Below, one piece after another: positions 26,176-64,000 of a stretch of DNA of 64,000 bases. Origin of the DNA: Psilocybe cubensis (taxonomy: Eukaryota); the NCBI GenBank assembly GCA_017499595.2, contig CM039004.1, forward strand, positions 558,001 to 622,000. Reading direction: 5' to 3'. The stretch's first letter is position 1. Each line of letters opens with the position of its first letter. The position numbers were made by a program, and so were the translations under genes. The notes under the pieces are model-generated. The model worked only from the letters and a program-made list of their open reading frames with translations, was not told the DNA's origin and did no database searches.

Positions 26176-26249
26176 GGTTCGATGGCGTAGTTGGTCATCG
26201 CATCTGTCTAACACACAGAAGGTCCTCAGTTCGAGCCTGGGTCGAATCA
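26176..26249 (+). tRNA. tRNA-Val(AAC), intronless
   Basis: GGTTCGA/TCGAATC acceptor stem, TCTGT-CTAACAC-ACAGA anticodon arm, TTCGAG T-loop, downstream T tract. Confidence 0.97.
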
Positions 26250-26579: not shown

Positions 26580-26653
26580 GGTTCGATGGCGTAGTTGGTT
26601 ATCGCATCTGTCTAACACACAGAAGGTCCTCAGTTCGAGCCTGGGTCGAATCA
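26580..26653 (+). tRNA. tRNA-Val(AAC)
   Basis: Identical to 26176 copy except one C>T in the D-loop; T-run terminator. Confidence 0.97.
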
Positions 26654-27291: not shown

Positions 27292-27365
27292 GGTTCGATG
27301 GCGTAGTTGGTCATCGCATCTGTCTAACACACAGAAGGTCCTCAGTTCGAGCCTGGGTCGAATCA
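27292..27365 (+). tRNA. tRNA-Val(AAC)
   Basis: Identical to 26176 copy; T6 terminator. Confidence 0.97.
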
Positions 27366-28023: not shown

Positions 28024-28097
28024 TGATTCGACCCAGGCTCGAACTGAGGACCTTCTGTGTGTTAGACAGATGCGATAACCAACTACGCCATCGAACC
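28024..28097 (-). tRNA. tRNA-Val(AAC)
   Basis: Reverse complement identical to 26580 copy. Confidence 0.97.
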
Positions 28098-34339: not shown

Positions 34340-36820
34340 TATCGTCGGTTAGGTATTAAAAATTAGGGGAAAGAAAGTCCAATGAAAGAGGATGATGATG
34401 CTGGGTGTACTTTTTTTCTTGCCTTATTATACTTTTACAATATCTACCTCACGGGGTCCATCCCTCGATGTCATCGACTTTCTCGTGGTGCGCGCTAAGT
34501 TGACACGTATCTATGACATTCTATGCCAAAGCTACTCCGTTCTTTGTCTATGATGATGATGATGATAGTGAAGCATGTACTCGACTCGGGAGGAGGCTCA
34601 TGCCATTTAGATAATACTGTCTGCACGCTCGACTTGGCATACACAACCTGTCATCAGGGGAGCCCTGCTAATGTTTCTTCCAAAATTAACAAAAGGATAG
34701 ACACGACTGCTCGCCAGTCATTGTTTCCACCTCGTTGTCAAATGTCTGTTTAGTAACTGTTGCCAGAAAACGTCGGTGTTATGGACGTTCAAGTCAAAAA
34801 ATTCAGAGCGCAGAGGTATTGACTCAGCTAGATTGACCTGTCGCATGCCGCTCGTACATATGACGTCGGAGATTTGAATTTGGACTTGAAGTCAAGGAAA
34901 AAGGCCTTCAGGGGAAATCCGCGATCATCAGAGAGATATTTCTAGTGCCCCTCACCGGCTTTTCCTGGAGGCGCTCGGATACGTCGGAAGACCATGACAT
35001 CGGGTCCGTTTACGGAACGATTATACACACATCAATGGTATATTCTTTGTAAATCCTGGTCGGTATCGGGCATGAGGGGTTCGTGGGAGGTCCACCACGT
35101 TCTGTCGTCCGACATATTCTGAAGAGATCTGGAAAAAAATGACGACTCGGCGCCAGCGGCAATATGACGAGAGGCTATGCTCGACCATTCCTCAAACGCG
35201 TAAATCACAATGACAATTTTTGTTAAACTTACAAGTCTGCCCTTGTGATCTTGTGATCCGCCTTTTTGATCGAAGGCAGTGTTTGCATGTATGACTCCTA
35301 ACGTCTGGGCCTACACATTCCATGGGGATAATCCCATTAGCGCCCGGCATGGTCGAAAATCCTCGAAATTACGCAAAATATGCTTCCCCGGTTGGATTAC
35401 ATCTGAATGCATTACTCAATTCAGAGGCACCGAGATGGCATTGCCCTCAACAAGTTACCGGATATAGGAAGGTCGAGATTAGTTTGCTATCTATTACAGC
35501 CTTTTTCTTGGCCTTTATCAATCGGGATAATATTGCGGGGCCGTTGGAGAGGAAGGTTTTGTATTCTTCAACACTGATGCGTTCATCGAAATAATAATTG
35601 AAACAAGTTTATACAATCGATGTGCACGATCATCGGAATGAAGTGCCGCCAATCAAGCATACTATCAGGAAGCCTTGGGGCTAATAAAGTAGGCAAAAGC
35701 AATGCATTCTCATGCTGCAGATTTACCTTTCATGATTGTTCGGCGTGATGTTTTGGCAAGCATCTCCAAATCCTCCATTTATGAGCTACCACCAGTAACC
35801 AAACTCAACCGCCTTAACCATTTCTTCAAGCGCTACTCAGGCTTTCAATGCACTCGCATAAGTTACCCGCACCGATCGAGTGTATTTTTGGTTTTTGGGT
35901 GTGGCTCGTCGATCGGAAATCCAGTGGAAATCCCTGTACTCCACCGCCTGTCTGCGCAGAGTATGTCGCCGTCGTAGCTCAAATACCACTGCGTCGTGGC
36001 AGAGCCACATATCAGCCGGTGGGCGCTATCTAAATTTGGCCGTGCTGCTCACGATAAACACTTTGGTTTTTGAAACCTGAGGAAGAACAACTTGAATTGC
36101 AGATGTCTTTGAGCGCAGTTGTATGTGTATCTCAACTGACTTCGAAGGATACAATCGTTCATTTCAATCACGTCCCTGAACCTCTTTGAATACAACCTAT
36201 TTCTGAAAAAGGTCCCACCCCCTTACAACGTCGGCGGTATGTTATGAGTGAAAGTTATTTTTAGCGCTCATTCATGCATTCAAAAGTTCCCACTAGACCG
36301 ATTGTTCAGGCGTTCCTCGTCAATTTCTATATATTGCCTTTGAGACGGGAAGTTGAACATTAAAAAGGGACGTAAGCAAGCGATTCATATCCAGGCTTTA
36401 ATCAAGCATCTTCGTCTCCCCCTGCCCCCCATAAGAAAACCGTCACAAACAAATAAGTAGATGGATAAGCTCGAAACAAACTTTTACCACTGCGCTATCA
36501 CATACCATGTACATATATCTCTACACTTTTTTTGTTTTATGTTATTGCCTCTGAGGGGAGAGCCCCTCCCTTGGCCTTGTACTGCGATGCTACCTATGGG
36601 CTCCCGGAGCCCCTACTGCTCTCCTTCGCTCACACTTGCATCCTAGAGGGCCCTCTTGTCCCCTACTGGATCCAATCCGTCCTAGGGTTGCTTAGTGCAA
36701 GGCCTCCGGCATTGTAGTGGGTAGTTTTCCCTTCTTACTCTCTTCTCATTTTTTTCTTCTTCTCTTGCACCTCTCGGGCCCGGGCGTCTTTTGATGTTCG
36801 TGTCCGCATTAGATTTTACC

Positions 36821-38752
36821 GGGCACCAGGAAATCAGCGTGGTTAGCCCGCGTGCGACCTATTTTTGCGTGCCACGCATAAATGTCAATCAGTAAATTTG
36901 CGTGTCCTTCATATGACTTTGCGTGCAAAATGCTGGATGTCGCGTGCGCATGATATGTAAATGCGTGCAGCGTCGTTGAAGTACCGTGCTATTTGCGTGC
37001 AACACTTTGTATAAAATTCACATGAAGAATAGTGTATGTTATGCATCCAGTTGTACTGAATGATTCATTCTCATCCAGATAAAGCTACTTAATTTAGGGT
37101 CTAATAATGTTTTAGCGAGCCTTGATCCATTGTCTTAGCATAAGGGCTCAGCCTACAAAGCCGAGGCTAGATATTTCTGCCTTTAATTAACAGATCAGCT
37201 CAGGTTCAATCTGAAGCCGTTAGGAAAGGCTCAGCTCAGCATCTATGGATTAGGGGCGACATATGTTATTGGATGAAACTATCAATAGGGATACGGGTTT
37301 GGGAGAACATTTTAATACTTACATCTATGCAGGAAGCTAGAGGAAATGGGTAGTTGGAATGTTACTTTAATATATCCTGTTTGTGCTTCAAAACACCCAT
37401 TCCCATTACAATGTCTAATGTTCGCCTCTTAGAGGAACAGGATTTTATTCCCTTGTATCCTCCATTATTCACTGACTCCTTGCATTAGTAACCGACGGGG
37501 TTAGCCACAACAAACTGGAGCGTAAACTCGGGACCGTCGGGGGGAGCGACACCGTTCGTTGTACAAATCCAGGAGATTCAAACCAACAATTCCTATACAA
37601 TGATGCACTAACACGGTTTTTGTCGTGCTCGAACGACTAAGAGGACCCGGTGCTACGAGTGCTCCGCCGCGCGCACTTTGGTTTGCATTTTGCATAGCTT
37701 GTATACGGGATCCTTGTCACAGGGGCTTGATTTACTGTCGGATTTGGGGAAAGATTTTATTGTTGTCTTAACAAGCATCCTTCCCAGAGGGTAGGGTATT
37801 TGCATGGCACAATTTGTAATAGCATCTTTGAAACAGTGCCATCTTTAGTTTCACGTTTTAATTTCTTTAAGATCTTTGAAACATATATTTAATTGCGCAT
37901 CCATATACATTTTACAGAGAATGCTCCAAAACGCATTATCTTGTACTCGCGTGCACGGTAAAATACCTTGCGGGGCCGTCGCGTGCAGATCACCACTGTC
38001 TGCGTGTCGATTGCACGCATTTAGTTGGGTCGCGTGCCGTCGCGTGCCATCGCGTTTCATCGCGTGTACGTGGGAAAATGAGTTGCGTGCTGCTTGCGTA
38101 GCAAATGCGTTCAATAGAGTGCACCTAGCGTGCTGTGGTGTCACGCTGGTGGTTGTTCAACAATATAAATGCATGTCAAAAAAGCAAAATTGTCGTTTTT
38201 CTTTCAAGTTGACGAAGTGATCGGATATTACCGATCATAAGCGGCTGCCGTTTGCAATGCCGATGATCGTTTGCTGCCTCGGAGATTGATGCGAGGCACA
38301 TGCCGAGGTTCACAGCATACGAAGCCGTGCCTCGAATTCATTGTATATATGAATTTTGTAAGAATGATTCTTCGTTGAAGTTCTACTGGAACCAGACCCT
38401 CAAATACACAAAATTCCAATGTATTATAGACCCGTAAAGGCATTATTTAAATAAAACACAACATCAACCATGCAACCATCTGCATCCTGTTGAACTGTTT
38501 GATACCCGTGTGATAGCTAGGCATGAACTGGTATAGCACAAGAGGATACTGTCATTGGCACATACCAAATATACATAAATGAGCGCTGACGAGAACCATT
38601 ACATTACAACCTTACGTGTGACACAACTGTGACATTGCGTGCAGAACACATCAATATGCGTGCAGAACACAGTTGTTGCGCAAAAATGCGTGTCACGCAG
38701 GCACACGCAAAAACGCACGCACGCGAGCAGCCACGCTGATTTCTGTATGCCC
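36821..38752. mobile_element. Non-autonomous Mutator-like (MULE) DNA element nested in the LINE
   Basis: Perfect 9-bp TSD GATTTTACC (36812-36820 and 38753-38761); imperfect TIRs GGGCACCAGGAAATCAGCGTGG.. / GGGCATACAGAAATCAGCGTGG..; many GCGTG subterminal repeats; no transposase ORF. Confidence 0.8.
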
Positions 38753-39019
38753 GATTTTACCCCTCCTCTTCGATCAATATAAGTAGTATGTCTTCTTTGT
38801 AGTATCGTAGTCTTTTCGTCCTTGCAATATATCTTACGAGGGCTTTTGCTTGCATGATGTGTTTGTCGTGAGTTCTTCGATGCTGGTGGTTCTCTTTTGT
38901 ATTTCTTCCCACATTTCTTCTTTCTTCTCCCTGTCCGCAGCACATTGAAAATGAAGTGTTCGACCATCTCAGTTGCTCGTGTTCCCACTCTACATTCTCT
39001 GCACATTGGGAGGTGCTTG

Positions 39020-39852
39020 TCGAAGGTGTGATCGAATTTGCTCAGGATACTAGCAGTGTACCCGTGCTTTGCACGGAAAGTTGGGAGGAAATTTACCAGG
39101 TTATTTTCCCAGTGTTTTTGCGAGAAAAGACGGAAGGTAATTTATCATGTTATTTCCCCAGTGTTCGAGGGCAGGTGGTTTGCGAAAAAAAAAGGCGCGG
39201 ACTGTCCGCCAGACTGACCGGCGGACAGTCTGCCGGACTTATAGGCCTTATAGTGAGCGAGCGTGACTGGGTTAGTGACAGCCGTGCACACTGTGCTCGA
39301 CAGCGATCAGTGCCCCTCCAACACACTACCGCCCTCCGCCCCCGAGCTGGCCTAGAGGATGTTCACCATTGTTTTGGCTGTATGAAGTTTTGGTATTTAT
39401 ATTACAGATTTATTTCTATGGGAGTACATGTGAATGACTGCATTGGGGTAGGAAAAACGCGTCCCTGACGCGTCCGAATAAACTTGTTCGCAAGTTGAAG
39501 TTGAGCCATCCAATATCCAAAAAAGCCACAATGCACCGAAGAAATTCTCACGTGTTTGGGGCAGCAGTGGAATACGCTACGAGCAATGTGCGCACCGTGT
39601 AGCGCATCAGGGGGCGGGCTATGTCCAGGAAGACTTTCATGAGCTCGCGACGTGGCTCGGACGTCACATCATGGTCACAAACACACAAGATACACCTTGA
39701 GTCCGGCGGACAGTCCGCCAGACTGTCCGCGCAAAAAAAACTCGTGGACGAACCTTTCTGCAGTGTTCAGGCCCGATTACAGTGTATTTCAGTCTCGATT
39801 ACAACGTTTTCAGGCATATTTCGAACTTTTTGGGTGATCGAAAAAGCAATCA
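39020..39852. mobile_element. Second non-coding insertion splitting the LINE ORF2 (boundaries approximate)
   Basis: Separates two normally adjacent ORF2 motifs (GHIPLN.H and CxxC..H...C); contains self-complementary GGCGGACAGTC/GACTGTCCGCC repeat blocks at ~39195-39240 and ~39700-39732. Confidence 0.55.
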
Positions 39853-40204
39853 TGTTGCTTTGATGATATTGATGGGAATTTAGCGGTATGTGGCCGGTGC
39901 GCGAAGTTGGATGCGCACGCCGCTCGCTTGTGCCCTATCGAGTTTGTGCGCCGTATTCCTGAACTTTGTGAATGTCAATTCTCTGTCTATTTTTTTCTCC
40001 TCGAATACTTTCTTTCTTCTGGAATCTATACACTACGTAAGGTAAAAGAACCAATTAAGAAACGATATGTTTCTTAATCACGGACAGTATATATACAGCA
40101 GAAACGGTAGTATAGTAAGGCAGCAGGCTTACACACTGCGCCAAATTTACCCCAGCTTAGAACCCCATCTTCTGATAGGACCCTGGCACCAATGGCTGCA
40201 TGAT

Positions 40205-40975
40205 ATAAAAAGATGTGTTTCTACTGATTAGATATGTGCTGTGCTGTTCTCTAGGTTTACTCCTCCCCGAATCATTTGTGTTTTTTTTTTCTTACCATTT
40301 TACAACAACAAACCACCCATTGTCTCTACGGAGACACACAATCAGAGCACGATGATGATGATGAGTTCGGTTAAATCACTTGAATCCAGCTTGAGCTTGA
40401 TTTCAGACAACCCAGTTTGAGCTCGCTCCTTCCACCGCATACAGGGGCATTGGAAGACGAAATTTGAAGCTTTGAAGGCCGAGTACATGGCAAAGTCCAA
40501 AGAAGTTTTTTGTCACGGTGCTGATTAGATATGTGCGCTTCTCGTCTTTCTTTCTTACCTTGTCACAACAACAAACCGCCCATTGTTTCTACGGAGACAC
40601 CCTTCATGATGATGATGATGCGCTCGGTGCATCACTCGATCCAGCTCGAGCTTGAACTTCAACGGCACAGTTGGCACTCGCTCCTCCACGACATCAAAGG
40701 CGAAGCTGCCCGCCTCTGAAATGTTGGTCGCCAGTAGGGCAGTTTTGAGCTGACATAGGACTAGACTTGATACTCTGCTTGTTCTTTACATAGATGCAGT
40801 GAAAGATGTGTTCTGTGCTGATTAAATATGCGATGTGTTCTCTGCTCCTGCTTTTCACATTTCTTTCCTTCTTTCTTACCTTCTCACCGCCCATTATCTC
40901 TACGGAGACACAGAATCAGAACATGATGTTGATGATGAGGAGCGTTGTTCATCACACGATCCAGCTTGCACGGTT
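40205..40975. repeat. Degenerate ~296-bp tandem triplication, with an inverted dispersed copy at ~46549-46770
   Basis: Unit CTGATTAGATATG..TTCTTACC..CCCATTGTCTCTACGGAGACAC..GATGATGATG..ATCAC..GATCCAGCT at ~40224, ~40521 and ~40817. Confidence 0.8.
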
Positions 40976-42302
40976 TGCGTGTGGTCGGTCACATCCTCTG
41001 CCCGCGCATCCAAATCACCCTGCACCCCTCTCGTCAACTCAACATCACCATTAGCACTCTTGATCTCGCGTACCCGTTGCCTCACCCCCTCGCGCCTCTC
41101 CGCCCCCAACGTCTCACGCTCATTCCGCGCTTCAACGAGTGCAGACACGGCTTCCCGGTGCCCTTTATCGAGGTCAATTACAAAGGGGAGCGGGAATGAA
41201 TTTGTGTTGGATGATGGGGGTTTTGTGGTAGCATTAGTTGTAGCCGTAGTCGCCCGATCTTGCACAGACGACAGAGGTGGTGTTGGAGACGCAGAGAAAG
41301 TCGTCGGCATAAACGTCGACGCGATCGTAACCGGCATATTCGGGAAAAGCCCCGCCAAAACGCTCTGCGGAAGGAAAGGGAGGAGGTGAGTGATATCGAT
41401 AAACGCGCAGACAGTGGAATGATACTAGCCATCATCCCAAGCCCAAAGATGAGCCTCTCGCGCCAGCCGTCTTCGTGCCACATCGTCCGCTCGTTCGGGT
41501 CAGATCTCCATCCTCTCCCACCTCCCTTCCCATCCCCATCTTCTTCTGCGTCGTCGTACCCCCGCGAATGAGAAGCGTAATACGCTCTTCGCCTCCTCGC
41601 CATCTCGTGTACGTATGGGTCGAACCCTCTGGTACCCCCCGCTGGAGTGGGACGCGCGTTTGGATGCGGAGATAGCGTGCGCCCGCGTAGAAAGTCGTAT
41701 GCGGCTTGGATATTCCTGAACCGTGTATGTGCGATGTCGGATGCGATCCGTGAGGCGTGGTGTGAGTCTGGGTGGTGGGCTTTGACGAGTTCGTAGTCTG
41801 ATGTCACACAATACAGACGCGCGTCAGGGGTATTGAAGGTAGGATATAGATGGTGTAGGTCAAGTCAGCTCACGTCTCACGCGTAACCTGACGTCGTCGA
41901 AAGAAAGAGAAATGTAAGGTGTGACTTACACCGCGCCTTGATCTCAGCTTGCGTCGCGCTGACAGGAAGATGGAATATCTGGTACGGCGTCGGTTTTGCG
42001 TGCCGCGGATACGGGTACGGGTTCTTGGGAGGTGCAGACGACGACGCCGAAGAAGACGATGAAGACGCGCCGTGTTCATCGCCCGTCACCGTAGCGTACG
42101 TGCGCGACGACAGGCAACCGGTTGTATTCGTCTTGGTCTTTGCATCGCCGTTGGTGCGGGTGCTCCGTAGGGAAGCGGGACGGGAACAGCATTGCGACGT
42201 CGATAACCACGACGATGACGAGGAAGATAGCCACGACGACGACGTCGACAAAGATTGGAGATGGCAAATCTGTACTGACAACCTCCGAGTGCTCGAGTGC
42301 AT
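40900..42302 (-). CDS. J-domain (DnaJ) protein, mitochondrial Jid1-like
   Basis: Presequence-like N-terminus; PYPRHAKPTPYQIFHL...EIKARYYELVKAHHPD...RFRNIQAAYDFL; TM segment, then HREAVSALVEARNE; 2 introns. Confidence 0.85.
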
Positions 42303-42489: not shown

Positions 42490-42563
42490 GGCCGACTAGC
42501 TCAGTTGGTTAGAGCGTCGTGCTAATAACGCGAAGGTCTTGGGTTCGATCCCCACGTTGGCCA
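42490..42563 (+). tRNA. tRNA-Ile(AAT), intronless
   Basis: GGCCGAC/GTTGGCC acceptor stem, TCGTG-CTAATAA-CGCGA anticodon arm, TTCGATC T-loop. Confidence 0.97.
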
Positions 42564-43363
42564 TTAGAAATCTTTTTGGACGGTATCAACTCCTTTTCTT
42601 ATTGACGAATAGAATACTAGTACCCCAGAGCACCCATTAGAATGTCGTGATAATAACACACAAAGTTCTTGGGATTCTCACACGTTCAATCTTGGATGAT
42701 ATTTTGTGCTTTTACCCTTCAGAAGATGTGGTTTAATGGTTTTGTAATGATTTGAGGGAAACATGTTGACATAAAAAATGGGGGTTTGTGTGTCAAAAAA
42801 TATTTTTGAGGTCCAAAGTTCTCGACTAAGAAACAGGTATGCTGCATTGTAGATCTGAATGGACTTAGACCGGTGAAAACAGGGAACACGAGTCAAGTTA
42901 ACTATAAGGGACGTGTAACGAGAAAAGTAATGGTGAAGAGAAAAGGGTGTGAGTGAAAGGTATAATAAAGTAGAGAGAGGGATGATGGGCGAGATTGAAG
43001 AACGACAACAAGTATTACCGCAAGTATATGAGAAACACAGTGAAGATGACGGATGTCCGAGTCCTCACTTTCAGAGCTCTATTCAAGTGTTCTATAATAC
43101 GATGCCACCGTTGTCTATGATAATCTACAAGATGTTAGCGTTCAATAGGTTAATTGATAATGAGGGCCCTTGTAGGCCACCAGAAATGACGAGGTTTATG
43201 AGCGCCTGCAGGCCAAATGATAGATAAGAGGAGACCACTGACTTTGACAATAACCCCGAGTAACTCATCGCCTTTCTCGATCCCGTTTTTGTCCTTTTTC
43301 GGTTTGAAGCAATGTTAAGCGCTGGCGCGGCTGGAGATGTATTGCCAAGGTGACTACATCACA

Positions 43364-43437
43364 GGCCGACTAGCTCAGCTGGTTAGAGCGTCGTGCTAAT
43401 AACGCGAAGGTCTTGGGTTCGATCCCCACGTTGGCCA
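43364..43437 (+). tRNA. tRNA-Ile(AAT)
   Basis: One D-loop T>C difference from the 42490 copy. Confidence 0.97.
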
Positions 43438-44129
43438 TAGAAATGTCTTTTTGGTTTTATGATTTCTACTTCGTGAATCAGCCAGATGAGGTTTTCAGTG
43501 TTTTGCGTTTGGTCTTGCCAACAGAGTAAGAATTCTAACTTATGCGTGGTTTATATTTTGCCCAAATGACCAACAAATGAGTGGCTTGATGAACCTTGGG
43601 CACTTATACATAGTCTCCCTCTCTAACATATCTGTTGTAATTTATTTTACCCTATACGCTTTCCTTCCATGTAATCTGATTGCTACCAGCGGCCCAGAAC
43701 AGCGTTCAACCAAAAATAGCACGCAAATGCTGCGTTAGCAACGCAACAGATCTTGCTTGATCTATAAATAGATTTATTTGAGTATGAGGTTTCCGTCTGT
43801 CGTGCCAACCTGACAAGTGTGATATGGAGTTAAACAGAATACATTGCGGTGTCTGTTATTAGTTAGCTGTGGTAATCACGTAGTCTGGATGGTTAGTGAA
43901 AACCCCATCCAGTTATTTGATTGGAGAATGAAAGATGATGAGTGATTCAGAGCATCACCATCGTCTTTATCATCATTATCATCATTGTGATATTATTCAT
44001 GCACCTGTGATGAACGGTTGAGTGGATATTACCATCGTTTCATAGCGCCTACAGTAATTTTACAAGATGGTAAGTACATAGTAGTCCATTTCAGTTCGAT
44101 TCAATATAATTTAACCGAGTTCAACCAAT

Positions 44130-44744
44130 CTAATTCCCCGCGCCAACAAACTCCCTCGCATTTTTCTCCTCATTCGCCTTTCGAGCCCTCCTCCGGCCCA
44201 ATGCACACATCGCCAAATTCACTCCAAGCGCAACAACCACGCAACCCAGCACAACGGTCTGCACTTTCTCAGCTCTCACATCCCGCGCCTTCAAATCCAC
44301 GTCCTCATCTTCATCCTCTGAATTCAGCGCTCCATTCGTGACTCCGCCAACCATTATCCCAAATGCCGTGGCAGTTACGACGAGGAGAAGGATGAGAACT
44401 GCTATATTAAACTTTTGGAACGGAATCGGCATCGCAAACTCGTTCGCCTCGTCCTTGGTTCCCGGCACCTCCCACTCTTCAGGGTCAATCAGCAAGCGCC
44501 CGCCCCCGGGACTGTTTTTATTTTTATTTTTGACCCGCTTGCGTTGAGCGTTGGTAGCGACGAAGTACACCGTGTGGTGCAGGAGGACGAGGCACGCGAC
44601 GGCCGCTGTGCGCGAGATTGTCGTGGTGCTGAGCATCCGCACGTAGTTGACGATAGATATTATGAGTATTGGGAGGCATAGGATAATTGTGACGATGGTG
44701 GTGATGAGGAGGGATCGTGGGATTGGGTGGTGGTTCGTTAGCAT
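44130..44744 (-). CDS. Uncharacterised 4-TM membrane protein
   Basis: 204-aa intronless ORF with 4 hydrophobic helices; clear paralogue of 50905-51534 (LIDPE, AMP.PFQ..NIA.L, VLGC...ALG.NLA.C.LGRRR...ANEEK.AREF). Confidence 0.8.
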   Translation of the reverse strand: MLTNHHPIPRSLLITTIVTIILCLPILIISIVNYVRMLSTTTISRTAAVACLVLLHHTVYFVATNAQRKRVKNKNKNSPGGGRLLIDPEEWEVPGTKDEANEFAMPIPFQKFNIAVLILLLVVTATAFGIMVGGVTNGALNSEDEDEDVDLKARDVRAEKVQTVVLGCVVVALGVNLAMCALGRRRARKANEEKNAREFVGAGN

Positions 44745-45453
44745 TGGTGTATTGAAAATTTGGTAGGGAGATGAAAAGATATTGAAAGTGAAAGAAGGAA
44801 GGGATGAATAGAAGGCTGAAACTCTAAGCTTGAAGGGCAGAAGCGACAGGTGTGAATTAGAAGGTCAGCTGTGTACGATGCAGAGAGATGGAGGACTCCT
44901 CCCATATAGTAACCTACACAGTTTTTTTATCATCTCGAGCTTTTATAAGAGTAGATTAGATCATGGAGCACAGGATGGAACACGTTCCTAAGACGAAGAG
45001 GTGATGAACTGATGTTGTTCGACCTGTCACACTACGTGCAGAGCCACAGCTTTCCGCTCTCTCCGGAAGGTGGAATTATTTTTTTAAAAAAAACTGCAGG
45101 CTCGTGGGTGCACATTTACCACTACTCAGGCTGCTACGCAGGAACAGCCAGGAACACGCACTGAGAATCAAACAATTCACAATCGAATCGACGAACCTAT
45201 AAGCACCTCAGGCTATGGCACACGCAGAGATATTCTTTCTGAATCCTGATACGTATAACCTCAGAGTAATAGATATACTACTCGTTACTAGTTACTACTG
45301 ATGCGGACAACATGAGATATCTACCGACGAGTAGGCAGTGATTGCCTAATGCCCTGTGGATATAATTGCGTTATTGGACAGCTCACAGTTCTCATTGAAA
45401 CTCGAATGTAAATTGGCGTGGGATGTGCTGGAAGGAAAGGGACCCGATAACTA

Positions 45454-46540
45454 TGGCTGTCCGTTTGCACATTTAATACCAAAGTATAAACTTTTTTCCC
45501 CATACATATAAATCACAATTTTTCTTGAACCCAACTACATACCTTGGTGTCCCGGTTATAGAGAGATAATTTCCGAGCATAGAAGAAATTATCCCGGTCA
45601 TTGTATTTGCATGCCCTTCAGTTTGAATGGGAGCTGCACACATAAGGGTATGCTATCCATACATAAAAAACTCAGTACCATAGTCTGTGACCCTCTCCGC
45701 ATGTACCTCAACTTTTGTCCGAAGATATAGAGTTGTCCAGATGAATATTATTCGTGCCGTCTGTGCCGTAGAGGCGTGGGAACTCGATTTTCGTCCCGCT
45801 TGCAGTGGCTTGCTACTTGTGAAGAAAGTAGGACAGTCATTACAAGATTATAAAATTAATCATGAGCATAAACACTCGTACATTAAAGTCACATAAGACT
45901 GAATATAGACTACTCCAATGCAATTTTCTGTCTGCAACCTCAACTTAGGCCTTTTTAAGCCTTAGCACGGCGAATGGGCTGGTCAAAGCACTCGTCTCAA
46001 ACTATGAAGACAAGCTACTTCTGTAATCAGCCTACACAGGAATATATTTACTGATTAATTGGATAAATGTGCATCTTTTTAATGTTCAATCAGCGTGTGT
46101 CGATAGGCATACAGGCAATGAACTGTAATCTGTGTCCATATTTGCCGAGATTTGCCGATTCTCACGATGTCTAGGCATGCACGGCATAGACAGAATGCCG
46201 AAAAATGACTGTATATCTTCGGGATGAAGAAAGGTAAGAACAATCATACGGGGAATCTTCAGATATAAGTAAGGCAACAAAATATGTATAAAAGGGAGTG
46301 TTTTCTCTATGTAAGGGATTGTAATTTGTATATGTGGGCACCAAAACTATATGTATGGCACTCAAAGTTGTATCTGAGGATGCAACCTATGAATATATGG
46401 ATACTGGATTTATATGTTCGGAAACCATCTCTCTATATCCAGGACATCAGAGTGTGTATATGGAATTGTGTAGAATTGAGACTTCTATGTATGGGACAAA
46501 AAGTTTATTGATTGGTATTAAATGTGCAAACGGACAGCCA
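45454..46540. mobile_element. MITE / foldback non-autonomous DNA transposon with long (~200 bp) degenerate TIRs
   Basis: TGGCTGTCCGTTTGCACATTTAATACCAA is a perfect inverted terminus; similarity continues inward for ~200 bp; flanked by TA on both sides (45452-45453, 46541-46542); no ORF. Confidence 0.85.
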
Positions 46541-47465
46541 TAAGCCATACATCACCATCATCATCATCGCGCTCGGATTGTGTGTCTCCGTAGAGACAAT
46601 GGTCTGTTTGTTGTTGTGAGAAGGCAAGGACCTTGAAAGAAAGACGAGAAGCGCACATATCACATATCTAATCAGCACGGTGACAAACACATCCTTTATC
46701 ATATCGTATCGTACGGCCTTCCATCTTTGCCCCTGTACACGATGGCAGAGCCGGTGACGCACTGACATTGATTCAGACAAAGGGTGGAAATGGAATAGCG
46801 ATATCACCAAGATCAAGATCACATTCTTGGGTGGGGTTCATCTGCGTCACCCAGGCGTCGGTGTCCCTAGGAGTCGGGTGTCCTAGGAGTCGGACTGTGG
46901 ACAAATACCCCTTTGTCCTGAAGCAACATCCGCACCCCGAGGAACGTGGCGAATGTAATTCGGCGCCTATTTCGCTATGGCGATCGCCCTGTGTTTCCTT
47001 GCCTTCCACGTCTCCCATTGGTGGGTTGGGTTGCGCGCCTTTCGAGTCTGGTTGGGGTGCCCTGGGGTGCCCCTAAAAGGGACGAGTGGAATACCGGATG
47101 CGGAGTATGTCTGTACACGTTGTTATGACCACCGATCGCAGCCCGTTGGGTTGTGGTCATGGTCGTGGAATCTGGATAATCATGTCCCGGAGAGGATGCC
47201 GAAAATCGGGGGTAGAAGAAAAAAAAAAGGGATGATAAAGGAGAGGACAAGCGCGGGTTTTTTCCTGTTCTTTTCTTTTTGTTTCGTCTCGTTTCGTCTC
47301 GTTTCTTTCTCGTCGAATCAGGGGGACCCCACGGACTAAAAGCGCACTCACGATCCAAATATAAACTACGGGCTGCACGAGGTTTGGTTCAACTTGAACT
47401 TGAACTTAAATCACGACCGACCAAACCCACCTCTTTCATCCCTACCTCTTTCTTTATTTCTCCTA

Positions 47466-48461
47466 ATGTCTCGCGCGACGAACACGAACGCCTTCACGTC
47501 CTACTCGCCCTTCTTCTCTTCAGGCCTGCTCGCCCAGTCGACGAACCCGCGTCTGCAGCGCCGCGGCACCTTCAACTCGGACATCTCAGAGCCATGGGAC
47601 GACGAGCTGTCCGACTCGTACCGCTCCTCCTCCCCCGGGCCCGCCGACTCGCTCATGGACACCGACCCCGACGCTGACGCTAACACCGCCGCCGACGCCG
47701 CCAACACATCCCTCTCACGGAGGAGTGCCACGCCCACACCCCGGTCCAACGGCGAGTCCCTCTCCATCTCTCCCAACGCCCCCCACTCGCTCGCCTCGCC
47801 TCTCCCCACTCCAACTCAGCAGCAGCCCCGCCTGCGCAGACGCCGCTCCAGCCTAACCCAAGCCGCCACCTCCCCAATGAACGCCATCCGCGGGCCCGCC
47901 CGCGCCGCCGAAAACGCGCTGCACCTCCAAAAGCAGCTGCCCGTGCCCTCGCGCGCGCGCAGCGGGAGCGTCGGGGCCGACACCACCATGAGCTTGTACA
48001 CCGGGCTGGACGGGACGACGACGATCGTCGTCGGGCGGATGCGGAGCGGGAGCTGCTCGAGCGTGCTCTCCCTCCCGACGCCCGTATCCGCCGCGCACCT
48101 CGTCCCGTCCTCTTCCTCATCTGCATCACGGTACACGAATGTTTCTATCACCCGTTCGCGCGCGACTGGCCTGACGACGATATCCCTCCACAGACCGCGC
48201 CGCGCCGTGCGTAGGGGTGCACCCATACCCGTGCCCGCGCTCCTCGCGCCGCCGCCGACCGCGCCGCTCCCTGCGCTCCCGCCTACGCCTGCGGGGCACG
48301 GCCCGGCGAAGCTGCGCCCGGCGAATGTGAATCCGTCGGCTGGTAATACGATGAAATCGCCTGCGGCGCGCACGTCGGCGCGTGCGCGTGGGTTGTCGGT
48401 GTCGAGTAGCGCGCTGGGCGGGGCGGAGAATAGGATTGACGAGGAGATGAAGGAGAATTAG
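47466..48461 (+). CDS. Uncharacterised Ser/Pro/Arg-rich disordered protein
   Basis: GC-rich coding-like ORF MSRATNTNAFTSYSPFFSSGLL...RRRRSSL...RIDEEMKEN*; probable in-frame intron ~48131-48193; TATAAA at ~47360. Confidence 0.75.
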   Translation: MSRATNTNAFTSYSPFFSSGLLAQSTNPRLQRRGTFNSDISEPWDDELSDSYRSSSPGPADSLMDTDPDADANTAADAANTSLSRRSATPTPRSNGESLSISPNAPHSLASPLPTPTQQQPRLRRRRSSLTQAATSPMNAIRGPARAAENALHLQKQLPVPSRARSGSVGADTTMSLYTGLDGTTTIVVGRMRSGSCSSVLSLPTPVSAAHLVPSSSSSASRYTNVSITRSRATGLTTISLHRPRRAVRRGAPIPVPALLAPPPTAPLPALPPTPAGHGPAKLRPANVNPSAGNTMKSPAARTSARARGLSVSSSALGGAENRIDEEMKEN

Positions 48462-49851
48462 CGCTTGAGAGGGTCTCTCTGTCTCCGTGTACATGGTGCG
48501 TTGCGTACTGGTCTATTTTTCGTATTGAATGTAGTTGTTCTAATTTAGGTGTGTTGCGTGTTAGGGAGCTAGCACGACAACGGGACTACGTTTCGAGACT
48601 TTCTTTTTTCTTTTCCTCGCCACACTCCTACCATCCTACCTAACCAAGGCGTTCTGCGCTCTGGCTCTGGTTCCTTTCACACTACACGACACTTCTTTTC
48701 GACACTTTTTTCCATGACGACCACGTTCCCGACCTCCCGAGTTCCCAAGTTCACGTTCATCTCCCTTCAAATCACTCAAGTCTCAAGTTCCAAGTTCATC
48801 TCGGATTGATTCCATCTATCCTTTCTTTTCCATCTCTTCACTTCGATTTGTCCTCCTCATCATCATCATTATATCTTCTAGAACCTGTTATGTACACCAT
48901 CGCTCTCCGGCGCTATTTTATTTATCTTCCATCTTCTATTTTCTATTTTCTTCTATTTTCTATTTTTTGCATCGACGACGCCCTTTCCCTCCCCCCGTTT
49001 CCGTTTCCCTAATGCGGCTGGACCGCACCTCACCGCACCTCACCTTCATCATCATCATCAACACAATCCGGACTCCTCGCGTCGTCCCCACCACCACCAC
49101 AAAAAAAATCGAGACGTTGATATCAGGTTATATCAACCCCCCTCCCTCCCTCCCCCATTTCATTTCTTTTTTTCTTTTTTGAGTTTGTCATTCAATCAAT
49201 TTTCGTATTTATCTTTCATCGTCTTCATCATCATCGTTTTGTCTTGTCTCTTTCCCTCTTCTTCTATTCTATTCTATTCTATTCTACCCAGATTCTCGTG
49301 CATTACGACCCCCTCCGTACTACTCCACGACATTACCTTACACGACCCCTACTATACTACCCCTACACTACCCCCACTACACCACCACTACACTACAAAC
49401 CGTCCGTGACAGGTCCCCCTACCCTACCCCTACCCTAATCTTACCCCTTACCCCCTACCCTAATACCTAATACCTAGATATGCCCCCTCCCCTCCCCCAC
49501 ACCACACTATATGATGCTATGTCACACACCTACTACCTATGCCAATTTCATTACAATCACATGTACACCAAAAAAAATCATATCGCATTACATTGTTGAT
49601 TTGATATTTGATAATATTCAGTCCGAGTCTGAATCAGAATGTGAGCAAGTTTGAATTCTGCTTTAGATTTGGTACAATGGTAGTTGGGATAGACGGTCGT
49701 TTTCGATACTTACTGTGATCGTTCGACAAGCAAAAAAAAGCAAAAAAAAGCAAAATAAAGATAAAAATAAAATAAAAACTGGTTCGACTTGCAACTTTCG
49801 AGTAAGACATCTCAAGAACCCTTGTAAATGTAAAAGAGAAAATTGGAAAGT

Positions 49852-49960
49852 TAAAAAGCACAAAAAGTTAAAAAGCACAAAAAGATAAAAAGCACAAGAA
49901 GATAAAAAGCACAAAAAGATAAAAAGCACAAAAAGATAAAAAGCACAAGAAGAAAGCACA
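49852..49960. repeat. AAAAGCACAAAAAGAT-type tandem minisatellite downstream of the minus-strand tRNA-Ile
   Basis: Repeated AAAGCAC(A)n units. Confidence 0.7.
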
Positions 49961-49991
49961 GAGAGAGAGAGAAAGAAAAGAAAAAGATGTG

Positions 49992-50065
49992 TGGCCAACG
50001 TGGGGATCGAACCCAAGACCTTCGCGTTATTAGCACGACGCTCTAACCAACTGAGCTAGTCGGCC
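49992..50065 (-). tRNA. tRNA-Ile(AAT)
   Basis: Reverse complement identical to the 42490 copy; T-rich terminator. Confidence 0.97.
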
Positions 50066-55079: not shown

Positions 55080-57359
55080 ATGCATATCCTGTACAGTATC
55101 ATTGGACTTTCATGTGGCCTTCGTGCCTACGCCCTCATGATAGGCCCATCGGCTAATTTGATCATTGGAAACAAAGCCATCGCTCCCGATGGATACAAAC
55201 GCTCGTAATTTTTTTTATCCAAATCGTCGTAGCCAGGATGTCCTAATGTCTCGCAGTGCTGTTTTGGCTGGTGCATCTTTCAATACGTTATCCTTTCCCG
55301 GACCTGTGATCAGGGCAACAAAGGTGCGGTGAACGATAATGATATGAAGCAGACTTACATGGTGCATTTTTCCAGGGTGACACGCTGCAAATAAACGTCG
55401 TAGATCAGTTGACCGATTCCACCATGTTAATGGGTACAAGCATCGTAAGTATCTTTGTTCTATGCTCGTCTTAACGTTCTTACACTTTGTGTAGCACTGG
55501 CATGGGTTCTACCAGAAAGGGACTAGTTGGGCAGACGGCGTTGTGGGTGTAACTCAGTGCCCTATTGCTCCTGGTCACTCTTTCTTGTATCAATTTCCCA
55601 CAGCCGACCAGGCTGGGACTTTCTGGTACCATTCTCATTATTGTGCGCATTCAAAGTGAAAATTCCGGACGTTGTGCTTGACAAGGTTATTCTATAGCTA
55701 CACAGTATTGTGATGGCCTTAGAGGTGCCTTGATTGTGTATGATCCAACTGATCCCTATCGGACCTGGTGCGTTCATTGGCATTACTCTGAGTCATATCT
55801 CAAATTTAATGTCTCTAGGTATGATTTCGACGATGGCAAGTCGTTTTTACGCCCGAACTGCACAAGTTGATAACCATTGCATCCTAATTTCAGAAACGAC
55901 GATTATTACGCTTGCAGACTGGTGAGCCTACATAAAACTGGTAATCAGGCTCTCTTAAACTAAACCCATCTCCATGTAAAGGTATCATCTGGCTTCTCCC
56001 CAACAGTCTCTTCCCGCTAATATAAACTCGGTTTTGATCAACGGACAAGGACGCTTTCCAGGAGGACCCGAATCTCCACTGTCAGTTATAAAGGTGGTTC
56101 CAAACAAGCGTTACCGATTCCGTTTAATCTCTATGTCCTGTGATCCTGCATTTACTTTCTCAATTGACGGACATCCGATGGTAAGTCATATTTCATCAGT
56201 AAGATATATCAAACATACTAAAAAAGAATAGACTGTTATTGAGGCTGACTCCCAGAGCGTACAACCTCTTACGGTTAATGAGATTACCATCCACGCCGGT
56301 CAAAGATATTCCTTCATTCTTTATGCCAACAATCCCATCGGGAACTACTGGATTCGGTCGCACCCCAACGATGATGGATTGAAAGGCTATGCAGGAGGCA
56401 TTAACTCTGCCATACTGCGTTACTACGGCGCACCCACTAAAGACCCAACCACGTCAAAGGCTTCCGTCTCGAATCCTTTGATTGAGGCAAATCTACGACC
56501 CCTCTACAATCCTGCTGCTCCCGGAATTCCATCCCCAGGAGCTGCCGACGTCAATATTAATTTAGAAATCACTTACAACAACGACACTCAGAAATTTCTC
56601 GTCAATAACGTTCCCTTCGCAGACGTCCCGGTTCCAGTGTTGCTTCAAATTCTCAGTGGAGGACAGTCAGCAATTGATTTACTCCCAGCTGGATCAGTAT
56701 ATACACTTCCCCCGAACAAAGTTATAGAAATTTCTATGCCCGGTGGTAGCACTGGAAGCCCGGTAACATTTTCTCGATTTGTATGTATTATTTACGATCT
56801 CTCACTTTGACAATTGTAGCATCCTATGCATTTACACGGTGTAAGTGATCAAACTTTGAATGTAGCTGACGTTTCCGATGACTCTCTGTAGCACGACTTC
56901 TCGGTTGTGCGAAGCGCCGGTAGCAAACAATACAATTATGTGAATCCTGTTAGGCGCGATGTGGTTAACCTAGGCGAAAGTAGAGCTGAAGATAACGTCA
57001 CCGTACGCTTCAAGACCGACAACTCTGGCCCTTGGATTCTTCATTGGTATGTTCACTATCATTATATATGATCATCTGTCCATGTACTAAGGAAGCATAT
57101 GTGAGCCACATTGATTGGCATCTTGAAGCGTAAGTTCGCTTGCTCATCAACCGGTTTGCGTAACGAAACTGCACACATTGTTTCTAGTGGTTTGGCTGTT
57201 GTGTTCGCGGAGGATGCTCCGTCAGTCAAGCTCAGCAATCCCCCTCGTATGTCTTCTTTTAATATAAATCTAAAAATTCTGACTTAGCCAAACTACCTAG
57301 CTGCTTGGGATCAACTTTGTCCTATCTATAACGCTTTACCGCCTCAAACCTTTCACTGA
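55080..57359 (+). CDS. Laccase (AA1_1), PsiL-like paralogue A
   Basis: [74 protein letters not shown]. Confidence 0.95.
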
Positions 57360-58911: not shown

Positions 58912-61223
58912 ATGCATCTTCTCAAAGGCCTCATAGCCCTTGGATGGGTACTTCAAGCCTACGCTGTTGCAATAGGTCCGACCACCAATTTGGTTATCGG
59001 AAATCAAGTCATAGCTCCTGATGGACTTAGGCGCTCGTAAGTTATTTACAATATTTTCCGAGTTAATTTGTTCTGATCACTCTGATTCACAGAGCCGTGT
59101 TGGCTGGAGCCTCAGCCAGCACTCTATCCTTCCCCGGACCTGTAATTCGGGCTACAAAGGTGTGTTGGTTGATGTGTTGTGATGTGGCGAGCAATAAATT
59201 CACAGTGTGCATTTTACTAGGGTGATACGTTGCAGGTGAACGTCATAGATCAATTGACGGATACTAGCATGTTGACTGGAACGAGTATTGTAAGTGTTAT
59301 TAAATGATTGTTGCCTACATATTGGCCAATATTTCTATAGCACTGGCACGGCATTCACCAAAAAGGAACCAGTTGGGCAGATGGCGTTGTTGGCGTGACT
59401 CAATGCCCAATTGCTCCTGGCAAGTCTTTCCTGTATAAATTTCCTACAGCCGAGCAAGCTGGGACTTTCTGGTACCATTCCCACTATTGTGCGTATAAAC
59501 TCAGGATATTGTTGTAATGCTTCTAACAAAATTCTTATATAGCTACTCAATATTGCGACGGCCTTAGAGGAGCTTTGATTGTTTACGATCCAGAGGATCC
59601 CTACCGAACTTGGTGAGACTATCGACCATCATTCTAGAATATACTGATTTTTTAACATTCCTTTGTAGGTATGACATTGATGATGGTATGTCGTCCACCT
59701 ACTGGGAGTCGTTGATAATTCAATTCATATTCAAATGCTTGCCGCAGAATCGACAGTGATTACCCTTGCAGATTGGTGAGTCCACAAAATTTGAACAACC
59801 TAAGCATAATTTCATATCCGTTTCCTCAAAACTCAGGTATCACAAAGTTGCTCATTTAGAGCCTATCCCTACTGAAGCAGACGCTACTTTGATCAACGGA
59901 AAGGGTCGCTATCCTGGCGGTCCTGCTTCGCCCCTGTCGGTTATTAATGTGGTTCCCAACAAGCGTTATCGTTTCCGTTTGGTCTCAATGTCGTGCGATC
60001 CTGCATTTACTTTCTCAATTGACGGACACCCCCTGGCAAGTATTTCTTAAAATTAACATATAACCCATACACTTATTATTTTGATAGACTGTTATCGAGG
60101 CCGACTCTCAGAGCGTACAACCTCTTACGGTTAACGAAATTACCATCTACGCAGGCCAAAGGTATTCCTTTGTTCTCTATGCCAACAACCCCGTCGGAAA
60201 CTACTGGATCCGAGCACTTCCCGATGAAGATGGTCCTTCTAAAGATCTATTTAAGAATGGAATCAATTCTGCCATCCTCCGTTACAGTGGTGCACCAGCT
60301 GTCGACCCAACAACACAGAAAGCATCTCCTGCCAATCCACTAGTTGAGGCAAATCTGCGACCTCTCTACAATCCTGCCGCTCCAGGTGTTCCTTCCCCAG
60401 GAAAAGCCGACGTCAACCTCAAGATAGGCATCACTTTCAACAATACAACCAGCAAGTTTTTTGTCAATAATGCCACCTTCACGGAAGTCAAAGTTCCAGT
60501 ATTGCTCCAAATTCTTAGCAAGAAATACCAGCCCAATCAGCTTCTCCCTGCCGGATCAGTATACACTCTCCCTCCTAACAAAGTCATAGAAATATCTATG
60601 CCTGGTGGGAGTACTGGAAGCCCGGTAAGCTTCTCTCTGCTCATGTATATTGTTTCCTCTCTCTTACTTGGCGCTTGTAGCATCCTATGCATCTGCACGG
60701 CGTACGATACTGATTTTTAGTATGGCAGACTTGACACTGACTACTCTCTGTAGCATGATTTCTACGTCGTGAGAAGCGCCGGCAGCTCACAATACAATTA
60801 TGTAAATCCTGTCAGGCGCGACGTCGTTAACATAGGCCGAAACCTCACGGATAACGTTACCATACGTTTCAAGACTGATAACTCTGGCCCATGGATCCTA
60901 CATTGGTAAGTCTACAAATAATACTATACTGTCCACCTGTTCATACACTAACGAGCGCACATCAGCCACATAGACTGGCATCTTGAAGCGTAAGTATCCA
61001 AACTCATTTTCATCCGGTGACTAGTATAACTAAAAAGACACGTATTCTCCAGCGGTTTGGCCGTGGTTTTCGCAGAGGATTTCGCATCTATTCAACTCAG
61101 CAAGCCTCCTCGTATGCATTTATTTATATGTTCCCTGATATATTGACTAAGTCCGTCTGTCTAGCGGCTTGGGATCAACTTTGCCCTACCTTCGACGCTT
61201 TACCTCCCCAAAAATTCACCTGA
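58912..61223 (+). CDS. Laccase (AA1_1), PsiL-like paralogue B
   Basis: [23 protein letters not shown]...; all four copper motifs intact; [25 protein letters not shown] ~58850. Confidence 0.95.
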
Positions 61224-63066
61224 TCAACATATTTGATCGGGGCTTGGGGTCTACCATTGATGAATAGGGTCTATGGTTAGCAATAATATCAAGTGTACCG
61301 TGTACCAAGTGTTCAAGTTTGACTCGACCTAGTGAATTGTTTGTTACTGTGCTTTGAATATATCTTCGTACAAATGTTAAGCAAGTTCTTTGCAGTCCAT
61401 TCATTTTGCATAGTAGCCGCAAGAATGAACTTAGCTCACGGACTGACCAACAATCAGCGTTAGAAACTAGACGTTTTTCTGAATTTCCGATGTAGAATAT
61501 GCTACTCGCTTCACTCATTTCGCGCACCCTACGCAGGCGATCAGCGAAATCGTTGTGTTTTCCGCGTGTTGGCACCTGGATGGGGGTGGATGGTTGTAAG
61601 AGCATGATAAGGAAAAGGGCTTGTATACGACTATGACACACCACGCCAACATCGTGCCTAAGAGGGAGCAGAATACACTGCTCACATCAATTGACACTAC
61701 ATGATGGTTCAATGATGAGCTAGGAAAAGAACGGCAGAAGGCGCTCAGACCAATCCATCCCTGTCACCATATTGGATGCTATAAACACCGCCAGGTACGT
61801 CTTAGACTGACGAACAGCACACTGGCAAGCCTTACCTCATTTCCACCCACATTGACCGCGGAGAAACATCTAGGAGCCCCATCATAGTCTGCAGAAATGA
61901 CAGCCGAAAGTGGTGGGGGATTATATGAATGATAGGGTGTGCATAAGTATGAGTGAGCATTGGGATATGCTACTCCTGGTTGGTATCTTTCAGGTTGAGA
62001 ACACTCATGATCCTTCAGCTGGCAGTGACTGTACCGAAAGTAAAGAAGGTTTAATTATCACTCACGGAATTTGTAGGTGTCCCTTTGTACGTTTCCCCTA
62101 TCAAACTATTCCCCTCCCTCCATACTCATTCCATCTCTTTGCGGTTGGCTTTGCTTCGTCGGTGGTGGGAGGGCGGTCGTTGACGTAGAGTCAACAAAAA
62201 AATACGACACACAACAGGTCACGCGCTGTCGGTCTATTTCAAATTCCGAACGATCACTATTGTAGCAAAAACTCCTCATCTACCAAAAATGGCACCCTTG
62301 ATCAACGAAGCCGACGGCGGATGCCGTCTAAACGACGCCCTACCCAAACCTATGATGAAGTTGGTCTGTTGTGTTACGGTAGAGGGATAGATAGAGGGAT
62401 ACTATACTAGGTTGTGAGAAATTGGATTCCGTGTATTTACTTTATGAAATGAACTCGCATCTTGCTAAACTAATGGATACAAAATGGATATGGTATCTCA
62501 TGAATCTGGGGCACATTCAGGACCATAACCTAAATAGACATGTGGAATACGTACAGAGTAATGCTCAAGAGGTTATTTTGGACACCTGAGAGTCAAGGAA
62601 GGTAGATTATGCCTGCAATACATGTTTACATTTAAAAACTAGAAGAAAGTAAGATTGCGATTGGGTGTAGAAAAGCTTGATGTAATACTGGAATAGCCTG
62701 AATACTTGTTAAAGGGTGAGCAGCAAGGCGTTGTGTAAAACTAAAGTTCAAGTCATGAGTAAAGTAGCAAAGGAGCTCAGAATCGCATTATACTTACCTA
62801 GTCAGACAAAAGTTGTAGGTGAACTGTAATTGCGATCAAGAACTGAAGCAAATTAAAGAACAAGGGGGAAAAGAAGGTACATTCATACCAACTCAAGTCA
62901 AAGTACCGATACATCGTTGCTATTCATACCAATGTTCCGCTGAAGCCATGGAAAAGATCGGTCATTAAATGTGCCGTTGTGCCTAGACCCCAATTCTCGT
63001 TAAACTGCCTGGTAGTATACTCGTATAAAAGGCTTGCTACAAAGATGTTCCTTTGCAAGTTTCAAG

Positions 63067-63515
63067 ATGAATTTTCTTCTAAGCATCGCTACCCTTGGAC
63101 TGGGACTTCAAGCCTATGCTGTCATGATAGGTCCCTCCGCGACTTTGGTTATCGGAAACAAAAACATAGCTCCCGACGGAATTAAGCGCTCGTAACTTGA
63201 CCTTTTATTTTGTTACTCGTTTTGTTCTAAACAATCGCAGGGCTGTTTTAGCTGGAACTTCACTGGACACTCTATCTTTCCCCGGACCTGTAATTCGGGC
63301 CACAAAGGTACGTAAATTAATGGCTATTGCAATTTCATGAGTGGGAAACCGAGTGTACAATTTCTCAGGGCGACACGCTGAGCTTGAACGTCGTCAATCA
63401 GTTAACTGATGCCACTATGCTGATGGGCACGAGCATCGTGAGTACCTTTGTCTAGCCCTCATTATATTTCTTGAAGGTTTCTTCAGCATTGGCATGGTTT
63501 TCATCAAAAAGGAAC
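63067..63515 (+). pseudogene. psiL: Laccase (probably psilocin-oxidising PsiL), exons 1-4, disrupted by a retroelement
   Basis: [97 protein letters not shown]; the paralogues continue SWADG, whereas this gene runs into T12 and stops at TAG 63571-63573; symbol from recalled PsiL N-terminus. Confidence 0.75.
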
Positions 63516-64000
63516 TTTTTTTTTTTTATTTTATGTTATAGCCTCTGAGGGGTGGGCCCCTCCCTTGGCTTAGTACTACCATTACAGTTTCTCTATATAG
63601 GTTGTAATCCTACTGTTCCATGTGTACTGTGTAAAGGAATAAGAAGTGTTGCTTATGAGAGATTACTAACATTTATTGCGGCGTGGTGTTTTCTGCGTGG
63701 GGTGCTGGAGTTGGAGTTGAAGGTTGAGGTTTCCTCTTCCGCTCCCGATATCGAGAGACTCGACACCAGGAGCCAAAGAGAAAAATGCCAGAGTGATAGA
63801 GCCGTTCTGTGATGTTCTTGTCTTCAAACCTAATGAGAATAGAAAGTCGGTCCTTCTGGAACTCCTCCCCATCGCGACAAAGAGCCCGTATTTGCCCTCG
63901 GATATCCTGCCTAGATACCCCTGCCTCATTTTCAAGTAATGACCATATGCTGTTTTTTGGAGTGGCGGAGTCGAAAGAGTCGCGAAGTGAATCGGCTGGG
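63516..64000 (-). mobile_element. Poly(A)-tailed non-LTR retroelement (3' end), antisense in the laccase exon; terminal ORF is ORF1/gag-like
   Basis: T12 at 63516-63527; 3' hairpin GAGGGG-N4-CCCCTC; open frame 63999-63673 (108 aa, not in the ORF track): ...KDRLSILIRFEDKNITERLYHSGIFLFGSWCRVSRYRERKRKPQ...*. Confidence 0.85.

Follow-up and report, generated by a model that had tools for sequence, protein, structure and literature searches.

The window (the whole 64,000-nucleotide stretch of Psilocybe cubensis DNA that we analysed) carries three laccase genes in tandem, which we will call lac1, lac2, and lac3. The third gene stops resembling a laccase partway through its fourth exon, and a preliminary description of this DNA, made from the sequence, viewed it as a blueing laccase of the psiL type that was knocked out by a retrotransposon. 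So the locus raises two questions: what interrupted lac3, and which laccase was lost? We consider it very likely that lac3 is one of a clade of four PsiL-type laccases, and that it was nulled by a young, polymorphic poly(A) retroposon that was probably mobilised in trans and inserted in antisense orientation. The features that bear on these questions are listed in the table.

Table. Features of the lac3 locus, of the inserted element, and of the laccase paralogues in the window. Positions are those of the window.
Feature	Positions	Strand	Remarks
lac3 exon 1	63067..63191	+	start ATG at 63067; signal-peptide region; ends ...IAPDGIKRS; GT donor at 63192
lac3 exon 2	63241..63307	+	0 differences to the spliced X10 contig over 63241-63305/7
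lac3 exon 3	63369..63437	+	GT..AG joint 63305(+2) to 63367(+2) in the X10 contig
lac3 exon 4, truncated	63487..63516	+	HWHGFHQKGT, copper motif L1; GT..AG joint 63437 to 63487 in X10
In-frame TAG ending the truncated lac3 frame	63571..63573	+	after 97 + 18 residues
Poly(A) tail of the element, T12 on the + strand	63516..63527	-	the first T may be the target's
3'-terminal tail module	63528..63583	-	A-rich stretch with AATAAA, and GAGGGG-N4-CCCCTC hairpin
Rest of the element's 3' UTR	63584..63672	-	
C-terminus of the element's ORF	63673..63999	-	108 codons and stop (63673-63675); second RRM-like domain; leaves the window
Second copy of the 57-nt tail module	36527..36583	-	degenerate tail T7GT4; upstream sequence unrelated and non-coding
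lac1, intact paralogue	55080..57356	+	KAH9479158.1; 523 aa with the GC-AG intron 55836-55893 read correctly
lac2, intact paralogue	58912..61220	+	KAH9479159.1; 524 aa with the GC-AG intron 60036-60087 read correctly

The preliminary description stated that lac3 matches its two neighbours exon for exon up to HWHGFHQKGT, and that it then switches to a run of 12 T and an in-frame TAG. Both statements hold. The introns of lac3 are at the same positions as those of lac1 and lac2 (where the sequence matching the HWHGFHQKGT region lies at 55495 and 59341), and 63067-63516 matches the lac1 protein (P0125) with E = 8.6e-27 in tblastn. The four exons up to this point total 291 nt, or 97 codons, and the encoded N-terminus is 78% identical to lac1, 76% identical to P0008 (KAH9478529.1, a laccase of 522 amino acids and 57.1 kDa that is encoded on another contig), and 71% identical to lac2. 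Judged by these alignments, the likeness of lac3 to its neighbours is far above chance. The switch itself is plain: GGAAC is followed by the 12 T, the first of which also finishes the Thr codon, and past the T run, the frame encodes 18 residues without any likeness to laccases before it reaches the stop codon.

For fungal laccases, we used the class of three-domain multicopper oxidases (Pfam PF07732, PF00394, and PF07731). The activity of multicopper oxidases as laccases requires the His and Cys ligands of the four copper motifs, L1 to L4. The insertion allele retains L1 (HWHG), in the conserved N-terminal cupredoxin domain, and its frame departs from laccase sequence at 63516, so L2–L4 (WYHSH, HPxHLHG, and HCHIDWH) are absent from it. 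Because the predicted product has 115 residues and only the first of the four motifs, the insertion allele cannot encode an active laccase. The earlier claim of a null allele is thus well supported: barring precise removal of the element from the RNA, lac3 has almost certainly lost its function in this assembly.

If lac3 was broken by an insertion, then the laccase was expected, according to the preliminary description, to resume at AGTTGGGCAGA... beyond the element. This is exactly what is seen at the empty site in public sequencing runs. We searched for runs with the unique laccase part of the locus (62700-63518), and 4 of the 14 runs that were listed (X5, X6, X10, and X12) were aligned to 62700-64000. 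These come from four studies and do not include X1–X4, which are marked as runs from which the assembly may derive. In all four, the laccase runs on after 63516 with AGTTGGGCAGACGGTGTTGTCGGCGTGACT, which encodes the same continuation as in the neighbouring genes, and none of the four shows the insertion. The element's 5' end and the rest of lac3 fall beyond the end of the window; there, a short duplication of ...AAAAAGGAAC(T) may precede the laccase, which would be expected to resume with AGTTGGGCAG... or AGTTGGGCAGACGG....

The four runs give complementary views of the empty site. In X12, which comprises raw DNA reads, 32 reads show the empty site where the flanking depth is about 50; this is about what would be expected if all of the reads were empty (bridging reads were not counted separately). 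The contigs from X5 (2328 nt) and X6 (3021 nt) contain the empty site and extend 1376 nt past the breakpoint. X10 yielded a 763-nt contig from which two introns have been removed at GT..AG borders, with 0 differences over 166 nt on lac3. We took X10 to be RNA by guess, and its spliced contig agrees with this. So the intact allele of lac3 is transcribed, and it is spliced as we modelled it. (The word depth of this contig is 6836, although the depth of a contig says little about expression.) We also considered whether lac3 might be an old pseudogene fragment, which is ruled out by the finding, in other samples, of the empty site and of a spliced transcript.

The insertion junction itself is known from the assembly only, so we also considered that it might be a chimera of the laccase locus and a copy of the element. 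This would be easier to believe in that the element is multi-copy (see below) and that the insertion was seen in none of the four runs, which do not include X1–X4. However, the join coincides exactly with the A tail's end and with the breakpoint of the empty site, with at most 1 nt shared, as in a genuine insertion of a poly(A) retroposon, and this is strong evidence against a misjoin. A repeat-mediated misjoin would look different, since no repeat at the join is common to the laccase and the element. Furthermore, the exact 444-amino-acid ORF of the element is on record on the same 3,522,523-bp contig. An assembly artefact therefore seems very improbable. Given the empty site in four of four runs and an identical copy of the element's ORF elsewhere in the genome, a real, polymorphic, and recent insertion is well supported, with the intact gene present in other samples. 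As the preliminary description had it, lac3 was cut short by a true insertion that left only copper motif L1, which is what the junction and the empty site together support.

What kind of element is it? Of its description as having a clean A tail and an open ORF, the tail is confirmed exactly as the 12 T on the plus strand; the minus-strand ORF is open as far as it can be followed, and it runs past the end of the window. The part of the ORF within the window is 100% identical to residues 337-444 of P0001, a protein of 444 amino acids. Between the end of the ORF and the A tail are 145 nt of 3' UTR, and the hairpin near the end of the element is supported by fold prediction as well.

The element is present in many copies. 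At 90% identity, P0001 falls in a cluster with 8 members, for which five different sizes of the longest contig are on record. Two of its relatives, P0134 and P0138, are from another contig of the same genome, and their element parts are identical to P0001 at 444 of 444 positions. These are two independent annotations that fuse the element's ORF to an upstream multi-pass membrane protein, which suggests another insertion into or beside a gene. Older copies, on additional contigs, are 98.4, 95.9, 93.5, and 91.7% identical to P0001. In X12, the depth over the body of the element is about 270, versus about 48 for the flank, or about 6 times as high. Because an identical 444-amino-acid ORF exists elsewhere in the genome, the insertion into lac3 is recent, which bears out the earlier suggestion.

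The end of the element seems to have a wider distribution than its ORF. The tail modules at 63528 and 36527 are 89% identical over 57 nt, and their 29-nt core occurs twice in the window and in none of 100 shuffled sequences. In X12, the depth peaks at about 410 over the final ~45 nt ahead of the tail; many reads have other left flanks and longer T runs (that is, loose ends before 63516 or 63519), and many reads diverge after 63571-63580. Since the sequence upstream of the tail at 36527 is unrelated and the X12 reads diverge within the module, the tail module is common to other repeat families as well. The tail at 36527-36583 is probably a truncated member, or a member of a different family that has the tail alone in common with the element. 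A search for a target-site duplication around this copy gave a single 9-mer 4.3 kb away, which we treated as chance. Rfam had no matches over 36000-41000, and no tRNA gene of the window adjoins either copy of the tail. In all five copies with a visible flank, a C precedes the T run (GGAAC, CTACAC, GCTCC, GCATC, and CATTC). This is a possible target preference, in a small sample of five copies.

Proteins similar to P0001 are found in fungi, specifically in Agaricales (Psilocybe, Cyclocybe, and Agrocybe). In the full library, phmmer found 121 representatives with E ≤ 0.001, including 54 with E ≤ 1e-10, and most of these are stand-alone proteins of 400–460 amino acids. Pfam has no family for the ORF or its relatives; we rejected sub-threshold hits (DUF2103, PTN_MK_C, and similar) as chance. 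A search of PDB sequences with a profile of the family gave nothing below E = 0.06. In the protein atlas, DUF4780 came up at 0.86, beside unnamed clusters from basidiomycetes, and without confirmation from Pfam, we treat it as a lead only.

The predicted structure was more informative. An AlphaFold2 model of P0001, built with 32 relatives, has a mean pLDDT of 74, with values above 90 over most of residues 230-420. In this model, the N-terminus is disordered, helices span 112-161, and two RRM-like alpha/beta domains span 225-325 and 328-422. The top matches of the model in Foldseek are tandem RRM proteins (IMP3, UP1, HuR, and PABP; best E = 4.6e-7). VIA-align gave Z = 8.6 for RRM1 of U2AF65 and Z = 7.6 for RRM1-2 of HuR over residues 226-421. 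The RRM of human LINE-1 ORF1p (2w7a_B) aligns to residues 327-420 of the model with Z = 6.8 and an rmsd of 3.0 over 83 aligned residues, and this match is tied with those of many cellular RRMs. So P0001 looks like an RNA-binding protein of the LINE ORF1p type by the architecture of its model, which is a likeness rather than a demonstrated homology, as the RRM fold is generic.

Classes of LINE ORF1p architecture were reportedly laid out by Khazina and Weichenrieder in 2009. P0001 resembles ORF1p in that a disordered and helical N-terminal part is followed by RRM folds, and in that the element encoding it is multi-copy and ends in a poly(A) tail. Unlike ORF1p, it has no detectable sequence similarity to those proteins and no CCHC knuckle, and its ORF is not followed by an ORF2 but ends about 145 nt from the A tail. 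We found no reverse transcriptase or endonuclease in P0001, in the ten relatives that were scanned with Pfam (including the longest), or in the window. A scan of the window for reverse transcriptase motifs gave two hits, whose contexts are not those of a reverse transcriptase, and no ORF like a reverse transcriptase. Among the 121 representatives of the family, there was no long form fused to a reverse transcriptase. Two long relatives have weak Pfam hits to host-type domains, which points to copies that are fused with host genes.

Thus, the label of retrotransposon holds in part. The element is a poly(A)-tailed retroposon: it has a tail of 12 A here, a degenerate tail at 36527, and longer T runs with other flanks elsewhere, and its copies are dispersed (with a cluster of 8 members and about sixfold depth) and vary by presence and absence (with the empty site in four of four runs). 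The other part of the label, a reverse transcriptase of its own, as expected for the ORF2 of a LINE, did not turn up in the ORF or in any relative that was scanned. "Retro" refers here to the A tail, the pattern of the copies, and the ORF1p-like fold. Because no reverse transcriptase was seen, the element is probably a non-autonomous derivative of a LINE, in the way it works, and not an autonomous LINE. In mammals, HAL1 is such a LINE derivative, with ORF1 only. Like HAL1, the element has retained a gene resembling ORF1 and an A-tailed 3' end of the LINE type, and has no reverse transcriptase; also, only its 3' tail is held in common with other repeat families, as would be the case for partners in trans-mobilisation. 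The differences are that this family is from fungi (Agaricales), that it is unnamed in Pfam, and that its partner LINE is putative.

The same lack of a reverse transcriptase, together with the hairpin close to the end of the element and the 121 representatives of a protein family that stands alone, would also be compatible with the end of a DNA transposon or Helitron, or with an ordinary multi-copy host gene, next to an incidental run of T. Helitrons have a 3' hairpin followed by a CTRR end, and they insert between A and T. But this element ends in ...CATAAAATA(12), that is, in a pure run of A after AATAAA instead of CTRR, and the target was ACT^AGT. In other copies, including the one at 36527, A/T runs of differing length abut unrelated flanks. 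Furthermore, the ORF lies immediately upstream of the tail, which is the layout of an mRNA-like retrocopy, and some gene models have copies fused to unrelated host genes. We consider an origin other than retroposition to be quite improbable.

We propose that exon 4 of lac3 was split between the Thr and Ser codons when a non-LTR retroposon with a poly(A) tail integrated there in antisense orientation. Target-primed reverse transcription would account for the junction: the 3' end of the plus strand, ...GGAAC(T), would have primed synthesis on the A tail of the element. The element's single ORF of 444 codons probably encodes an ORF1p-like RNA-binding protein, in which a disordered, basic N-terminus is accompanied by long helices and by two domains with RRM folds. 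For its mobility, the element most likely depends on an autonomous LINE, which would act in trans and recognise the hairpin of the shared 3' tail. We view the insertion as young and polymorphic, with other strains carrying and transcribing the intact gene. A point against this proposal is that the best 120 of 1176 protein hits include no P. cubensis protein that corresponds to the downstream part of lac3.

The second question is which laccase was lost. The biochemical definition of the blueing laccase PsiL goes back to one protein. Lenz et al. 2020 (PMC7004109) described it as the laccase of P. cubensis that oxidises psilocin (JGI protein 71514; 528 amino acids; 57.5 kDa), and they reported that it is 63% identical to AFE48786.2 and 61–71% identical to laccases from other producers of psilocybin. 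The main text of that paper and the other literature that we searched gave neither an accession nor a sequence for PsiL, and we used these identities instead. AFE48786.2 corresponds to P0072 in our protein collection.

In a tree of 29 laccases, in whose alignment lac3 occupied only 18% of the columns, lac1, lac2, P0008, and the N-terminus of lac3 form one clade with 100/100 support. The sister of this clade, also with 100/100 support, is a single protein from P. cyanescens, P0010. (The pairing of lac3 with lac1 within the clade has weak support, 87/66.) So there appears to be a P. cubensis-specific clade of four PsiL-type genes, of which lac1–lac3 are in tandem and P0008 is on another contig. 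The complete members are 65.7% (lac1), 66.2% (lac2), and 63.7% (P0008, 522 amino acids) identical to P0072, and 72.4%, 70.9%, and 71.4% identical to P0010. For lac3, with its 97 comparable residues, identity to P0072 is 56% over 96 amino acids. Two other P. cubensis laccases do not fit the published figures: P0012 is 78.6% identical to P0072, and P0112 has a much closer relative in P. cyanescens, P0063, at 76.2%. As the identities fit the four-gene clade and do not fit P0012 or P0112, PsiL is very probably one of lac1, lac2, lac3, and P0008. The label "PsiL-like" was therefore correct for lac3: it is from the same species as PsiL, its clade is the only one in P. cubensis to agree with the published identities, and its intact allele is transcribed and spliced. 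It differs in that the complete members of the clade have 522–524 amino acids, versus 528 for PsiL, and in that lac3 itself is cut here after 97 residues.

Might lac3 be psiL itself, so that this assembly carries a natural null allele of psiL? This is possible, but we find it rather doubtful. The fit of the clade (63.7–66.2% to P0072 and 70.9–72.4% to P0010) would be consistent with it, and so would the lengths of the three complete members (523, 524, and 522 amino acids), none of which is 528, as well as the very high depth of the intact transcript contig in X10. However, lengths may not agree between the JGI gene models and those used here, and the caveat about contig depth applies. Also, P0008 fits the published 63% and 71% at least as well, with 63.7%, 71.4%, and a mass of 57.1 kDa, and it seems to be the best fit among the complete genes. 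Finally, lac3 was read here over its N-terminal 97 residues and not over its full length, and our protein collection does not include any protein with the N-terminus of lac3. A query with exon 1 (41 amino acids, against longer proteins only) returned 12 candidates, none with E ≤ 0.001.

The paralogues in the window are intact: lac1 and lac2 keep the copper motifs, with L2 and L3 found in the DNA and L4 in the protein models. The GC-AG intron in each of these genes (donor GCAAGT) has led to mis-splicing in the public models (535 amino acids for one; 398 and 492 for the other). We also noticed a partial fourth laccase on the plus strand (3-2171), which is cut by the start of the window; its tblastn pieces are 45–76% identical to various laccases, and it is more distant from lac1–lac3. 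Elsewhere in the window, there are clusters of tRNAs with identical anticodons: four tRNA-Val(AAC) within 2 kb (26176-28097) and three tRNA-Ile(AAT) within 8 kb (42490-50065).

The insertion of a transposon into one member of a gene family is an ordinary type of event; among the papers listed in our literature search, we found no report of one in a P. cubensis laccase. We view as unlikely the combined reading that lac3 is psiL proper and that it was knocked out by an active and undescribed family of ORF1-only (tandem-RRM) retroposons from Agaricales. If lac3 is psiL, then a widely used assembly of P. cubensis represents a natural knockout of the blueing laccase, which would provide a genetic marker and a mutant for weighing the contribution of PsiL to blueing and to the loss of psilocin against those of its three paralogues. 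Given that the intact lac1 and lac2 remain, as does P0008, and that there is a second nucleus to be reckoned with, any effect of the loss of lac3 on blueing is speculative.

The locus has a practical lesson as well: public gene models here are unreliable, with GC-AG introns mis-spliced in lac1 and lac2 and with lac3 unannotated. More broadly, P. cubensis appears to have undergone a recent expansion of the PsiL type of laccase to four genes, of which one well-transcribed member is broken in this assembly and whole in the four other samples. An unnamed family of retroposons that encode an RRM protein seems to be active in cultivated P. cubensis and to be hitting genes. And the two states of lac3 are part of a natural allele series that may reveal which paralogue or paralogues drive blueing and the degradation of psilocin.
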